DNA from: a virus
Lineage: Duplodnaviria; Heunggongvirae; Uroviricota; Caudoviricetes
IMG/VR virus record: IMGVR_UViG_2563366932_000014
DNA: 42,975 nt
Direction: 5' to 3' (one strand)
In this document: positions 35,911 to 38,131 of the stretch, piece after piece
Position numbering within the stretch: the first letter of the stretch is position 1
Layout: the number at the start of each line of letters is the position of its first letter
The notes under the pieces: model-generated
What the model saw: only the letters and a program-made list of their open reading frames with translations
The model's database searches: none
Told to the model about the DNA's origin: nothing
Position numbers and translations under genes: made by a program

Positions 35911-36585
35911 ATGAAAACAATCCATGACATCCGGCGGTCTAACGCCAGAAAACTGAGAGATGGTGTTGGCGGGAATTCTTCCTTTGCCACTATGATTGAT
36001 CGCGAGCCAACCCAGACCAGCAGGTTTATGGGAGATGGTGCTACTAAAAATATCGGTGACAGCATGGCACGACACATCGAAAAATGTTTCGACCTGCCTG
36101 TCGGATGGCTCGATCAAGAACACCAGACAACGAACATCACAAAAAAACCTGATGTTTCAATCACTAATAAACAAATCACATTAGTCCCTGTCATATCATG
36201 GGTACAGGCCGGAGCATGGAAAGAAGTTGGATATTCTGAGGTTGATTTGAGCACAGCAGAAACGTATCCCTGCCCTGTACCCTGTGGGGAAATGACTTAT
36301 ATCTTGCGGGTGATAGGTGATTCAATGATTGATGAGTACCGCCCGGGAGACATGATTTTTGTCGATCCTGAAGTACCTGCCTGCCACGGTGACGACGTTA
36401 TTGCATTGATGCACGATACAGGTGAAACCACCTTCAAAAGGTTGATAGAAGATGGGACACAGCGTTATCTCAAAGCGTTAAACCCAAACTGGCCTGAGCC
36501 TTACATTAAGATCAACGGTAATTGCTCTATAATTGGTACTGTGATTTTCTCAGGAAAACCAAGAAGATACAAAATCAAAGCCTAA
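35911..36585 (+). CDS. cI-like repressor (HTH plus S24 LexA-like autopeptidase domain)
   Basis: N-terminal HTH; ..VQAGAW.. candidate Ala-Gly cleavage site; ..GDSM.. Ser and downstream Lys of S24 peptidases. Confidence 0.8.
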   Translation: MKTIHDIRRSNARKLRDGVGGNSSFATMIDREPTQTSRFMGDGATKNIGDSMARHIEKCFDLPVGWLDQEHQTTNITKKPDVSITNKQITLVPVISWVQAGAWKEVGYSEVDLSTAETYPCPVPCGEMTYILRVIGDSMIDEYRPGDMIFVDPEVPACHGDDVIALMHDTGETTFKRLIEDGTQRYLKALNPNWPEPYIKINGNCSIIGTVIFSGKPRRYKIKA

Positions 36586-36596
36586 TCAATGTTTAT

Positions 36597-36620
36597 GAAC
36601 CTGCTTCGGCAGGTTTTTTT
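36597..36620 (+). terminator. rho-independent terminator of the cI-like gene
   Basis: aacctgc ttcg gcaggtt followed by 7 T. Confidence 0.7.
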
Positions 36621-36624
36621 ATAC

Positions 36625-36662
36625 TTGACAATGTACCTTTGGGATACATAATGTACCCAAGA
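36625..36662 (+). promoter_or_regulatory. candidate pL-like promoter with operator-like GTAC half-sites
   Basis: TTGACA - 16 nt - CATAAT; AATGTACC repeated twice across spacer and -10. Confidence 0.4.
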
Positions 36663-36787
36663 GAAACAACAAACAGGCAGGACGCCCACGAAGTAGCCGC
36701 CTGGGGCATATGAAGTCCAGGATGATTCGTTAGCAACAAAAAAGCGCCCTATAGGACGCTTCGCTCTTTAACAATCTGGATGACTTA

Positions 36788-37300
36788 TTACTCAGATTTG
36801 AACTTTGGTTCTGGCAAAAGAGGAGGAGTTGAGTCCTCGAATCGTAGCCAGTGCTCCCAGATATCGTGGGATTGTAATTCCAGAAGACCAATTTGACGTG
36901 ATGCAACTGCAGTGCCAGCTATAGTTCCTCCTGCATAATCAACCTGGACGGACTTTGACGCTTTCTCAATTAATTCTGTCCAAGCTTCACTTTCCGCGTT
37001 AAAAGAAGCAGTTAATTCCTGCAGACGCTGTGGATCATCCTTGTTGTCTTGTTTCAAACGATTCAGGGCGGCCACCGAATACTTATTCTTAACCCAACTA
37101 ACCTGAGCTAACTGAACTCTCTGACAAGCGTCCATATCAGTAGTTGTTTCCTGAGGCATATCAAAGCAGGAAATAAAAAAAGTCTCAACACCATCATTTA
37201 GACTACTGCTCGGCTGGTTCAAAGCATCAGAAGCATTGGATGCTATCGGTATTATCAGTGCTACCGACAGAATCAAACGTTTAACATAAATCGCTCCCAT
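36788..37300 (-). CDS. secreted DUF1311 (LprI-like lysozyme-inhibitor family) protein
   Basis: N-terminal signal-peptide-like segment (..LILSVALIIPIASNA); family call from recalled similarity; GAGGGG RBS. Confidence 0.55.
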   Translation of the reverse strand: MGAIYVKRLILSVALIIPIASNASDALNQPSSSLNDGVETFFISCFDMPQETTTDMDACQRVQLAQVSWVKNKYSVAALNRLKQDNKDDPQRLQELTASFNAESEAWTELIEKASKSVQVDYAGGTIAGTAVASRQIGLLELQSHDIWEHWLRFEDSTPPLLPEPKFKSE

Positions 37301-37586
37301 TTAATTATCCCCTCTAAGAACAGAGTCATCCAGATTAGCCGAATCCTTGTTGTTGGGGAATAACCAGGCCCACCTCGCCTGATGTGGCTAAAAGCAGGCA
37401 CATAACAGCTAAGTATTTTCAACCAGAGAGAATCCTTAGCGTTGTGGTGAATGCGGCTCAGCGCACGCGGGTTAAGGTTGAGGCTGACAGTCGACCTTCT
37501 GTGGATACCCACCCGCCTGGTGTGCAACCTTCGCCAGGCACCGGGAGGCACCCGGCACCACAACTTTATGCTGTGTGTAGTCCTGG

Positions 37587-37632
37587 CGGTACCAGCTTGT
37601 ACCCTTGCTTCCGGCTGGTACCGCTCTTTTTA
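37587..37632 (+). terminator. strong intrinsic terminator within the early-left leader
   Basis: perfect 11-bp stem gcggtaccagc/gctggtaccgc, 17-nt loop, then TCTTTTT. Confidence 0.55.
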
Positions 37633-37768
37633 CAAAACAGAGAAGAGCATCACCGGACGACGGGCTCATAACCCAATCCACCCGGGCGGCTGCCACCGCA
37701 GGTGTTCTTCTCTGTTTTGTGGAGAAACCAACCGACCTTGCAGGGTCGATATGATGAGGAGCAGCAAA

Positions 37769-38131
37769 ATGGCTAGCGAACGCAGTACCAACGTGCAGGA
37801 ATTTATCGGGGAGCTGGACGGCGGCGTATTTGAAACCAAAATCGGCGCAGTTCTCAGTGAAGTCGCTTCCGGTGTGATGAACACGAAAACCAAAGGTAAG
37901 GTCTCGCTCAACCTGGAAATCGAACCGTTTGATGAGAACCGTGTGAAAATAAAACACAAACTCTCATATGTTCGTCCGACTAACCGCGGGAAAATTTCCG
38001 AAGAAGACACCACCGAAACGCCGATGTATGTCAATCGCGGTGGTCGCCTGACTATTCTGCAGGAAGACCAGGGACAATTACTGACTCTTGCCGGTGAACC
38101 TGACGGAAAACTCCGCGCAGCAGGTCATTAA
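37769..38131 (+). CDS. hypothetical early protein (120 aa)
   Basis: GAGGAG RBS then ATG at 37769; the listed 226-aa ORF's N-terminal part is Arg/Cys-rich translation of the structured leader. Confidence 0.5.
   Translation: MASERSTNVQEFIGELDGGVFETKIGAVLSEVASGVMNTKTKGKVSLNLEIEPFDENRVKIKHKLSYVRPTNRGKISEEDTTETPMYVNRGGRLTILQEDQGQLLTLAGEPDGKLRAAGH

Follow-up and report, generated by a model that had tools for sequence, protein, structure and literature searches.

A Probable STnc100-Type Small RNA and a Second Structured RNA in the Early-Left Leader of an Escherichia coli Prophage

Introduction

How are the early-left genes of a prophage reached by transcription if an intrinsic terminator and a long stretch of folded RNA lie between them and their promoter? 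The question is raised by a viral DNA of 42,975 nucleotides (IMG/VR record IMGVR_UViG_2563366932_000014; this whole stretch is called the window below). From its letters alone, a highly structured leader of about 330 nt, beginning at position 37440, had been predicted to precede the first early gene. Expression of the operon was thought to need antitermination or a structural switch, unless the region encoded a small RNA. The analysis described here identifies the segment 37408-37720, 5' of the first early-left gene, as a non-coding RNA made of two modules that meet at the U-run of the terminator. The account that we consider probable is that of an early-left leader carrying two mobile, independently conserved RNA modules, the first of which (module A, about 37408-37631) is a small RNA and a divergent member of the STnc100/EcOnc27/PasD family.

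Results

The early-left leader

The placement of the region before an early-left operon was borne out by its surroundings. Upstream lie a cI-type repressor gene, the terminator of this gene and a pL-like promoter flanked by operators; downstream lies yfdPQR, and all are on the + strand (Table 1). Two further operators of the TGTACC-N5-GGTACA pattern are found between the cI-like and cro-like genes (35827-43 and 35877-93). The pL-like promoter is about 790 nt 5' of module A, and the terminator of module A therefore falls within the early-left leader. This leader is probably transcribed from pL, untranslated and about 1.1 kb long, with the structured region as its 3' part. The predicted structure stands; the length of 330 nt does not. 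The start of the structured region also moves, to about 37408 (the P0 hairpin), and conserved sequence begins earlier still, at 37370, where BLAST homology to SfV, SfII and e14 sets in. A hairpin of different sequence (UAAGAG/CUCUUA) is retained at the P0 position in ST64B. At the other end, relatives have the small GC hairpin (37733-37748 here) swapped for GGCGG-UGGCA-GCCGCC at an unchanged position. The region 37400-37790 folds with an energy of -166.8 kcal/mol (z -6.55), a value that not one of 100 shuffles reached. Sequence matching this stretch, at least partly, is present in 2888 of 5426 complete E. coli genomes.

Table 1. Positions of the leader elements and flanking features in the window.
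Feature	Position	Strand	Description	Basis
cI-like S24 repressor gene	35911-36585	+	own terminator 36597-36616	
pL-like early-left promoter	36625-36652	+	TTGACA-16-CATAAT	promoter scan 11/12
Two repressor operators	36632-36648, 36652-36668	+	overlap the pL-like promoter	TGTACC-N5-GGTACA pattern
Start of conserved block	37370-37400	+	small hairpin CCACC..GTGG, then AAAAGCAGGCA	
P0 hairpin	37408-37440	+	GCUAAG / CUUAGC, 5' of the core in this STnc100 subtype	MFE fold
Module A core	37441-37564	+	pseudoknotted STnc100-type domain	Rfam match, covariation
P1	37441-49 / 37556-64	+	9 bp	
Junction	37450-52	+	AAU	
P2	37453-57 / 37463-68	+	bulged A, loop UCAGC	
PK1	37474-80 with 37525-31	+	AAGGUUG with P4-loop CAACCUU, 7 bp	
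P3b	37501-12	+		
P4	37516-22 / 37532-38	+		
P5	37541-55	+	CCGGG-AGGCA-CCCGG	
Linker	37565-37584	+	UUUAUGCUGUGUGUAGUCCU, single-stranded	unpaired in local MFE core
Intrinsic terminator	37585-37631	+	11-13-bp stem, 17-nt loop, then CUCUUUUU	
Module B	37632-37720	+	three-way-junction RNA	covariation, fold
Module B closing stem	37632-51 / 37701-20	+	20 bp	
Module B arm 1	37653-85	+	GGG-CUCAUAA-CCC at 37662-74	
Module B arm 2	37686-99	+	GCGG-CUGCCA-CCGC	
Conserved segment and GC hairpin	37721-37771	+	GGAGAAAC, then small GC hairpin 37733-37748	
Shine-Dalgarno sequence	37756-61	+	GAGGAG, serves ATG at 37769	
yfdP-family gene	CDS 37769-38131	+	120 aa	annotated yfdP; phrog_204 match

Module A has the core of the STnc100 family

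The small-RNA alternative gained support from an Rfam search, one of the checks originally suggested. STnc100 (RF02076) was the sole significant match within the 43-kb window. It covers 37411-37633 and the model in full (positions 1-206 of 206) with 45.4 bits and an E value of 3.5e-8, a score 1.6 bits short of the family's gathering threshold of 47 bits. The copy in SfV scores 39.5 and that in ST64B 35.1, the latter over the core only. STnc100 is the same RNA as EcOnc27 and sRNA103 and, together with PasD1 and PasD2, makes up a set of Hfq-binding prophage sRNAs of Salmonella, EHEC and EPEC (PMC7873438, PMC8550237). EcOnc27/sRNA103 is supported by Hfq-CRAC and Northern data (PMC7873438; PMC12711010), PasD1/2 are Hfq-dependent on Northern blots and present in RIL-seq data (PMC8550237), and PasD and STnc100 share a common ancestry (bioRxiv 10.64898/2026.05.13.724894).

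Family membership is apparent from the features of the module. Where GC-rich hairpins had been noticed, the segment 37441-37564 folds into several hairpins that make up a closed domain (-56.6 kcal/mol, z -3.09). Both the invariant GGUGAAU (37446-52) and the invariant CACCGGGAGGCACCCGGCACC (37539-59, which includes P5) are present without mismatch. P1 and P2 covary across 34 diverse family members, with compensatory changes at four positions of P1, and P5 covaries in the Flotzy/Kp4866-6 variants (GGUGG-AGGCA-CCACC), its AGGCA loop being kept. The pairing PK1, which joins the segment between P2 and P3b to the P4 loop, newly supplies the family with a covariation-supported pseudoknot: at least five Watson-Crick pairs can form in 72 of 77 distinct family cores, through more than 15 different sequence pairs, as compared to 10-18% in two controls. 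That the pseudoknot covaries argues for a function of the conserved 5' domain in its own right. The family core has about 25 invariant bases; these and the pseudoknot exceed the needs of a base-pairing sRNA, which hints that the core binds a ligand or protein, a role for which the small-RNA account offers no explanation. A second tertiary contact, between the GC of the P2 loop and the CGCG before P4, showed one covariation (GU with AC, in the Stx2-phage copy) and is not established.

Thus, module A shares with STnc100, EcOnc27 and PasD the closing helix, the GGUGAAU junction, P2, P4, the invariant P5 and the pseudoknot, as well as a 3' end made up of a linker and an intrinsic terminator, and a location in a prophage. 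It differs from them in a P2 of the GCGGC rather than the CCCCC type, in the extra 5' hairpin P0, and in its place, which is the pL leader and not the interval between Q and the lysis genes or the region downstream of stx2B. The range of the family is hereby extended from late and virulence regions to an immunity-proximal early-left leader. Whereas AsxR adjoins the STnc100 copy of the Stx2 phage (88 bits), module A has no antisense AsxR/AgvB partner, none being found by the Rfam search on either strand of the window, and is followed by a three-way junction on the sense strand.

The terminator and the 3' ends of the RNA

The perfect 11-bp terminator stem with its T-run was confirmed as an exact inverted repeat (37586-37596 / 37614-37624) followed by T residues at 37627-37631; the coordinates of all originally described elements proved correct to within one base. 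In the fold, the repeat extends to 13 pairs, closed by a 17-nt loop and followed by CTCTTTTT, with an energy of -23.7 kcal/mol (z -5.08, 200 shuffles). A consensus scan missed this terminator because its loop limit was 8 nt. A loop of 17 nt is unusually large for a terminator. Elsewhere in the family, a terminator-like hairpin with a T-run lies 34-139 nt past the core in 83 of 110 distinct copies; the corresponding count for control windows is 66 of 287. Within the linker, the string UGCUGUGUGUAGUC is retained in SfV, e14, ST64B, phiNP, Flotzy and Kp4866-6 despite differing upstream domains and terminators, and may serve as a seed or an Hfq-contact region. No complementarity to the linker of 11 nt or longer was found within the window.

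The short terminated transcript that had been suggested as a check can be looked for in the e14 prophage of K-12, whose copy is 89.5% identical to the module A region. Term-seq data show an RNA 3' end of this homologue that coincides with the final U of its terminator (1201195(-), 34,193 reads; Adams et al. 2021, PMC7815308) and a second one just past the core, 4 nt beyond P1 (PMC7815308). A further strong 3' end in MG1655, at 1201423(-), is supported by 109,099-285,136 reads, scores 1.18 as an intrinsic terminator (PMC7815308), and is the e14 equivalent of the conserved-block start. The e14 ends could derive from read-through of the cI-ymfJ transcript, in which case no dedicated sRNA promoter would be involved. 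A Reg-Seq preprint gives a start of the intE-xisE-ymfH operon, in one gentamicin replicate only. Many family members have a sigma-70 promoter 13-14 nt 5' of GGUGAAU, which this subtype lacks. For the copy in the window, the best candidate promoter of its own, AAAGCA-17-TATTTT, is weak and was missed by the promoter scan; the candidate -35 box reads AAGACA in SfV and e14.

By analogy with the family, module A is probably an Hfq-associated RNA acting in trans. Transcription entering it would mostly halt at the U-run (37631) and set free a stable small RNA, about 190-230 nt in length, that 3' trimming could shorten to a nuclease-resistant core (ending at about 37568). Because the terminator separates pL from yfdP-yfdQ-yfdR (in relatives also from xis-int), module A would also attenuate or insulate the early-left operon, and module B and the genes would be carried by read-through transcripts only. 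Hfq dependence, targets in trans and the size of the read-through fraction are what we infer for module A. That the operon needs antitermination or a structural switch, as originally proposed, is plausible. A comparable arrangement is that of DicF, a 53-nt sRNA with an intrinsic terminator in the dicB operon of the Qin prophage. There, too, a terminator-bearing sRNA sits within an early operon under repressor control in a defective lambdoid prophage, and in both cases this embedding means that the downstream genes need read-through. The two RNAs are otherwise unrelated in sequence and structure: the Rfam DicF model gives 15.9 bits here (threshold 48) over the terminator hairpin only, and DicF is simple whereas module A has a pseudoknotted core of 124 nt. 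A working terminator between pL and the genes leading to xis-int, in phages without N, bears on early-left silencing in the lysogen and expression on induction in SfV-, ST64B- and e14-type prophages.

Module B is a three-way-junction RNA with a tRNA-fMet-like arm

A long-range stem enclosing further hairpins had been predicted just 5' of the ribosome binding site of the first early gene. Its arms (37632-37656 / 37696-37720) are 25 nt long and 84% complementary, they end upstream of the Shine-Dalgarno sequence serving the yfdP-family gene, and the segment folded alone (-43.5 kcal/mol, z -7.06) has the closing stem around two hairpins. The stem does not belong to a single leader structure, however, as had been supposed, but to a separate, independently conserved RNA. 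Among 18 distinct homologues of this RNA, 94.9% of cells are paired and 10 pairs show compensatory changes; these values were reached by none of 500 shuffles, slid controls giving 36-48%. Conservation of pairing, likewise proposed as a check, is seen in homologues of module B as well as in those of the module A core. Judged by its G-U pairs, module B belongs to the + strand.

Module B is found in prophages throughout the Enterobacterales: the sequence GACGGGCUCAUWAYCCAAUCCA is present in at least 120 viral contigs and in 24 species-representative Enterobacterales genomes. In arm 1, CGGGCUCAUAACCC is identical over 14 nt to the anticodon arm of E. coli tRNA-fMet, three G-C pairs and the CAU loop included. 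Module B occurs independently in late leaders of Klebsiella phages after tRNA genes; the Klebsiella/Raoultella versions are situated behind tRNA-Asn and tRNA-Arg genes and have an acceptor-like CAGGCC-ACCA end. Module B is not itself a tRNA. It has no D arm and no T-loop consensus, forms only three of the five anticodon-stem pairs, and here lies within an mRNA leader, where a 20-bp stem closes it. It has no match in Rfam (none to the tRNA model at E values up to 10), and ARAGORN calls no gene in 37300-37900. Nor does ARAGORN call the Klebsiella version, which has an acceptor-like stem ending in ACCA directly behind tRNA genes, while calling the two neighboring tRNAs.

Module B would be a separate RNA on the read-through transcript. 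Lying just 5' of the ribosome binding site, it most likely acts in cis, by affecting how the downstream mRNA is processed, how stable it is or how its translation is initiated, or else serves as a tRNA-like decoy. Such a copy of the initiator-tRNA anticodon arm directly 5' of a ribosome binding site is a candidate for tRNA mimicry, in phage-host conflict or translational control.

For module B taken by itself, we regard as possible, if somewhat doubtful, that its 20-bp closing stem is an RNase III site detaching the leader from the yfdP mRNA, or that it is simply a degenerate tRNA-Met gene devoid of present function. The first option has a precedent in the lambda N leader, where a large hairpin sensitive to RNase III stands between nutL and the first pL gene, close to the latter, and processing detaches the leader from the mRNA. 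Like that hairpin, module B is a long duplex (20-25 bp, near-perfect) immediately 5' of a ribosome binding site in a pL leader, and a boxA-like CGCUCUUUUUACAA is found at its junction with the terminator. The closing stem of the Klebsiella version has only 6 bp, however, and hence the long duplex is not what is conserved in module B. The leaders differ as well: the first gene here is of the YfdP family and not an Arg-rich N, boxB is lacking, and a real terminator precedes the hairpin. The second option draws on the 14 nt shared exactly with tRNA-fMet and on the position and acceptor-like end of the Klebsiella/Raoultella versions. Against it, ARAGORN and the Rfam tRNA model both reject module B, and an invariant arm 1 between stems that vary by compensation indicates ongoing selection and not decay.

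Discussion

The invariant bases of the core and the tRNA-like arm of module B can also be read jointly, and we put this forward tentatively: neither module would be a plain base-pairing sRNA. The compact, doubly constrained core would serve to bind a particular partner, be it a protein, RNA polymerase or a small molecule, and module B would mimic the anticodon stem-loop of initiator tRNA and represent an undescribed class of three-way-junction RNA across Enterobacterales prophages. As such, it could be a decoy for an anticodon-loop nuclease, for instance a VapC-type toxin, or it could offer the 30S P site, IF3 or MetRS a handle by which translation of the first early-left gene is controlled.

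A ligand or protein bound to the core might alternatively set the level of read-through at the terminator 22 nt downstream, in the manner of a riboswitch, so that module A is a cis-acting attenuator gating the early-left operon and the short RNA a by-product. A complex conserved fold followed by a terminator does precede operons (yfdPQR here; elsewhere holin/endolysin genes, nanS-p or an SPFH gene), the number of invariant bases and the pseudoknot are typical of aptamers, and in this subtype the element is part of a leader without a promoter of its own. We nevertheless consider this improbable. No conserved alternative pairing was found between the 3' strand of P1 or P5, or the linker, and the 5' arm of the terminator. 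phiNP and Flotzy retain the linker and terminator where the upstream domain is different or absent, which indicates that the terminator is independent of this core. Furthermore, many family copies have a promoter at the start of P1 and tandem copies occur, as fits gene-like units, and the downstream genes are functionally unrelated. Known riboswitch and ribozyme classes gave chance-level Rfam matches only (Phe_leader, E 0.29, elsewhere; hairpin ribozyme, E 2.8).

Considerably less probable is processive antitermination by the core, which would bind RNA polymerase as nascent RNA, allow read-through of this and later terminators, and so stand in for the missing N protein in the way of putL and putR in HK022. 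The resemblance lies in a structured RNA in the early leader of a lambdoid phage lacking N. No N-like gene follows pL, the element is 5' of terminators in the early-left leader, and in many relatives the core begins at +1 of a strong promoter, as does putL (PMC9378689). On the other hand, the core has five helices and a pseudoknot, whereas put RNAs of the HK022 type have two stem-loops in about 70 nt, and the core has no sequence similarity to putL or putR. With up to three mismatches allowed, the HK022 immunity region does not contain the core motif, and putL and putR share no motif with it; identity with put was therefore rejected. Only one copy exists in the window, with none downstream of pR. 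The terminator directly after the core is used, terminating transcription in the e14 homologue, and the RNAs that build up from relatives are short, about 200 nt. Leaders of the mEp460 and phiNP types have the same terminator without this core, and typical family copies reside in Q-controlled late operons, where there is no need for an antiterminator. A match to the core in HK639 lies in the late leader and not at the put sites of that phage. Antitermination of the N/nut type was also rejected: the boxA-like bases vary in relatives (CGCCCUU, CGACCUU), and neither a boxB nor an N-like ORF is found.

That the ORF at 37451-37768 encodes a YmfH-like protein is hardly credible, in spite of its 106 codons in frame with yfdP and of the 'protein YmfH' label that RefSeq gives the homologous stretch of K-12 e14: it has no match to any Pfam family, the RefSeq entry for 37444-37754 of this genome is a hypothetical pseudogene marked 'frameshifted', single-base indels distinguish close homologues from one another, substitutions follow the RNA pairing through compensatory changes and not the codon structure, and the Arg/Cys-rich composition, which had already been taken as not protein-like, is that expected of GC-rich hairpins. 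The stretch, which is labeled a protein (ymfH) in K-12 and, in the E. coli type strain, a 'frameshifted hypothetical protein', is thus due for re-annotation as RNA.

Genomic setting of the leader

The window is found at 100% identity in the E. coli ATCC 11775 (DSM 30083) chromosome, and the prophage is a lambdoid one of the SfV/SfII/SfIV/ST64B/e14 type. The near-consensus promoter listed in the table was identified as pL because the operators overlapping it share their pattern with two further occurrences between the repressor and cro-like genes. Genes resembling cro and cII are oriented opposite to the pL-side genes, and no N-like gene is present after pL. The minus-strand insert that follows encodes a secreted protein of 170 amino acids with weak similarity to LprI (lysozyme inhibitor) and has its own terminator (36762-36741); it is necessarily crossed antisense by pL transcription. 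This slot, which looks like a moron slot, holds an unrelated plus-strand ORF in SfV and two minus-strand ORFs in mEp460.

Features of the early-left region (window positions)
Feature	Position	Strand	Remarks
cI-type repressor gene	35911-36585	+	S24 peptidase
Repressor-gene terminator	36597-36616	+	
Near-consensus promoter (pL)	36625-36652	+	TTGACA-16-CATAAT
Two operators overlapping the promoter	36632-48 and 36652-68		TGTACC-N5-GGTACA
Insert encoding secreted LprI-like protein	36788-37300	-	between pL and the structured leader
Module B closing stem	37632-51 / 37701-20	+	20 bp
Module B arm 1	37653-85	+	terminal GGG-CUCAUAA-CCC at 37662-74
Module B arm 2	37686-99	+	GCGG-CUGCCA-CCGC
yfdP	37769-38131	+	downstream of structured region
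yfdQ, then yfdR		+	after yfdP; DUF2303 and HD-family 5'-deoxynucleotidase, respectively

Module A is a divergent STnc100-type RNA

The observation that a highly structured leader with an intrinsic terminator precedes yfdP was confirmed. For the segment 37400-37790 the predicted fold has an energy of -166.8 kcal/mol (z -6.55); an exact 11-nt inverted repeat (37586-96 / 37614-24) and the CUCUUUUU behind it make up the terminator (z -5.08); and the long-range stem (37632-56 / 37696-720) encloses an 89-nt element with a z of -7.06. A Rfam search of the whole window gave a single significant match, STnc100 (RF02076), at 37411-37633; it spans the full model (1-206 of 206) and scores 45.4 bits (threshold 47; E 3.5e-8). 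The window copy shows all structural hallmarks of the family yet falls 1.6 bits below the cut-off, and this upstream part (module A) is treated here as a member of a divergent STnc100 subtype. The family is known; the variant and its genomic context are new.

The 21-nt string CACCGGGAGGCACCCGGCACC is unchanged in hundreds of phage records found by BLAST. Rfam places a bona fide STnc100 (207.7 bits) in the Stx2 phage VT2-Sakai between stx2B and the nanS-p esterase gene, adjoining AsxR on the opposite strand, three copies between Q and the holin gene of Fels-1, one in the late leader of HK639, and a match limited to the core in a P1-like phage. Pattern scanning of viral contigs yielded at least 120 loci with 85 distinct cores, and the copies sampled are flanked by Q-like antiterminator genes and holin/endolysin genes. 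The Stx2-phage STnc100, known as EcOnc27 or sRNA103, has been verified as an sRNA by Hfq-CRAC and Northern blotting, and RNAs of this type are found in dyads that separate the late promoter from the lysis genes in at least 8 Sakai prophages (PMC7873438; PMC12711010). PasD1/2, which are Hfq-dependent sRNAs (PMC8550237), were grouped with STnc100 in a 2026 preprint (bioRxiv 10.64898/2026.05.13.724894).

Some late leaders carry two or three copies in tandem: Fels-1 (record L002; 1996-2209, 2410-2532 and 3533-3751) and the comparison records L017, L024 and L068; in L017, each of the three copies has a promoter-like site of its own, always at equal distance. Additional small-RNA modules in phage regulatory leaders are an isrK copy in the early-right region of ST64B (L006 21-97, minus strand; 64.3 bits) and, directly after the HK639 Q gene, an isrJ-like element near threshold (L004 1887-1959; 34.6 versus 37 bits), both detected with Rfam.

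A conserved pseudoknot in the core

Folding an alignment of 34 diverse family members resolved three helices in the core. P1, the closing helix, shows compensatory changes at four positions. P2 comprises 5 bp and a bulged A, in the form CCCCC/GG-A-GGG or, as in the window, GCGGC/GC-A-CGC. P5 is an invariant hairpin, CCGGG-AGGCA-CCCGG, stacked directly on P1. The strand just 3' of P2 can form at least 5 consecutive Watson-Crick pairs with the P4 loop in 72 of 77 distinct cores, as opposed to 10-18% when loops were shuffled or exchanged among members. More than 15 distinct sequence pairs are used, including CUGGUG/CACCGG, AUCAGCA/UGCUGAU, CCAGUC/GACUGG and AGACUGACAAA/UUUGUCAGUCU. This pseudoknot is absent from the Rfam consensus structure. 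In the window it joins AAGGUUG (37474-80) to CAACCUU (37525-31), whereas the minimum free energy fold pairs AAGGU to a closer ACCUU; ST64B keeps the pseudoknot but not that local hairpin.

Early-left leaders in related phages carry structured alternatives in the core slot, with linker, terminator and module B common to all, and none of these variants has a Rfam match. In Flotzy (L133) and Kp4866-6 (L132), P5 reads GGUGG-AGGCA-CCACC with the loop retained, and the Flotzy type has GGUAAU. The mEp460 leader (L008 2350-2490) retains P1, GGUGAAU with its AAU junction, and the placement of the hairpins; complementarity between the P2 loop, GCUGAU, and the final hairpin loop, AUCAGC, suggests a possible kissing contact. 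The phiNP leader (L131) has unrelated sequence in the core slot.

Transcript ends in the e14 homologue

The K-12 copy in prophage e14 is 89.5% identical, is annotated as the CDS ymfH and lies upstream of xisE-intE. Three 3' ends on its strand are listed in the Term-seq data of Adams et al. (2021; PMC7815308). One (1201195; 34,193 reads) falls on the final U in the run of the homologous terminator (CUGGUACCGCCCUUUUU, followed by ACAAAAC), and another (1201257; 29,484 reads) lies 4 nt past P1, at the end of CACCACAACUUUA. These ends supply, in a homologue, evidence of the short terminated transcript that the original prediction had proposed to look for. The third, a strong "orphan" on the minus strand (1201423; 109,099-285,136 reads), follows a small hairpin and is the strongest 3' end of the e14 region; it has no U-run and an intrinsic-terminator score of 1.18, and none of the three ends, where scored, was assigned to a Rho termination region (PMC7815308). 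MG1655 position 1201423 corresponds to window ~37400 (37370-37400), just upstream of module A; the end there may reflect processing, or it may be where an upstream RNA from the repressor-ymfJ side stops.

In the family, a hairpin with a T-run occurs 34-139 nt (mostly 44-88 nt) past the core in 83 of 110 distinct copies, against 66 of 287 control windows. In about one quarter of the copies, the -10 element of a sigma-70 promoter begins 13-14 nt upstream of GGUGAAU, a location that would set the RNA start at P1; no such promoter is present in the window subtype, which has the P0 hairpin instead. The unpaired linker UGCUGUGUGUAGUC between core and terminator is kept even where the upstream domain differs or is absent, as would fit a seed or Hfq-contact region. 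Within the window, no targets complementary to it over at least 11 nt were found.

A riboswitch-like attenuator is an attractive alternative, the core being much more elaborate than a base-pairing sRNA requires; however, no pairing competes with the terminator, which is retained alongside other upstream domains. A put-like antiterminator fails, as neither sequence nor copy number agrees and the terminator adjoining the core is used. For practical purposes, a protein-coding role is excluded: the ORF spanning this stretch, already judged not protein-like, matches no Pfam family and is labeled "frameshifted" by RefSeq in the ATCC 11775 genome; 1-nt indels distinguish close homologues.

Annotations of the RNA modules as protein are probably spurious. 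They include "protein YmfH" in the K-12 RefSeq record (e14, L007 2576-2887), a "frameshifted hypothetical protein" at 37444-37754 in the window's own genome, and "hypothetical protein" CDSs in several phage records.

The sRNA reading of module A can be set out as follows. Polymerases starting at pL after induction, or reading through from the repressor operon in a lysogen, would cross the insert and enter module A; the core would fold and the majority of them halt at 37631, releasing a stable structured RNA, probably partnered by Hfq as in its relatives and presumably acting on targets. The same terminator would hold yfdPQR low (and, in relatives, xis-int), and a fraction reading through would bear module B beside the ribosome-binding site. 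The original interpretation is partly supported: its small RNA stands, while a need for antitermination or a structural switch is no more than plausible.

Module B is a separate conserved RNA with an initiator-tRNA anticodon-arm sequence

BLAST breakpoints at 37584 and 37745 indicate that the terminator and long hairpin move independently of the core. Among 18 distinct homologues, the module B pairing holds in 94.9% of cells, with compensatory changes in 10 pairs; none of 500 column shuffles came up to the observed values, and sliding the partners reduced pairing to 36-48%. Numerous G-U pairs assign the module to the plus strand. The motif GACGGGCUCAUWAYCCAAUCCA is near-invariant while the stems vary. 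It was found in at least 120 viral contigs and in 24 species-representative genomes, where it nearly always lies between a terminator U-run and GGAGAAAC, a small GC hairpin and a Shine-Dalgarno sequence; the genera include Escherichia, Shigella, Citrobacter, Enterobacter, Klebsiella, Raoultella, Kosakonia, Leclercia, Mixta, Pantoea and Erwinia. An exact match in an assembly labeled Chryseobacterium sp. 18061 (L246) sits in a typical enterobacterial prophage leader, and that assembly is probably contaminated or mislabeled.

The 3' flank of the terminator, CGCUCUUUUUACAA (37621-37634), resembles boxA; the boxA-like bases vary among relatives, whereas the UUUUUAC and GGAGAAAC strings are kept. 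The U-run can also pair with the conserved GGAGAA 3' of module B (37721-37728), which would lengthen the closing stem in read-through transcripts.

A 14-base stretch of module B, CGGGCUCAUAACCC, recurs without change in the anticodon arm of the E. coli initiator tRNA (a tRNA sequence checked against the full set of 5426 genomes). ARAGORN and Rfam called neither a tRNA nor any other family on module B. An RNase III site is possible, although arm 1, and not the long duplex, is the conserved feature; so is a decaying tRNA remnant, against which compensatory evolution argues for a present function. The apparent mimicry of initiator tRNA is striking, and module B is the part most deserving of experiment.

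A short-stem module B ending in CAGGCC-ACCA occurs in late leaders of Klebsiella and Raoultella phages, immediately behind tRNA-Asn and tRNA-Arg genes. The 70-nt tRNA-like version in Klebsiella phage GZ7 (L130 1503-1580) and records L144, L157, L159, L215 and L255, where the preceding tRNA-Asn and tRNA-Arg genes are annotated, is itself unannotated in all six. It has a 6-bp acceptor-like stem with an ACCA or GCCA end and a 6-7-bp T-arm-like hairpin, together with a long arm bearing the CUCAUAA loop, but no D arm.
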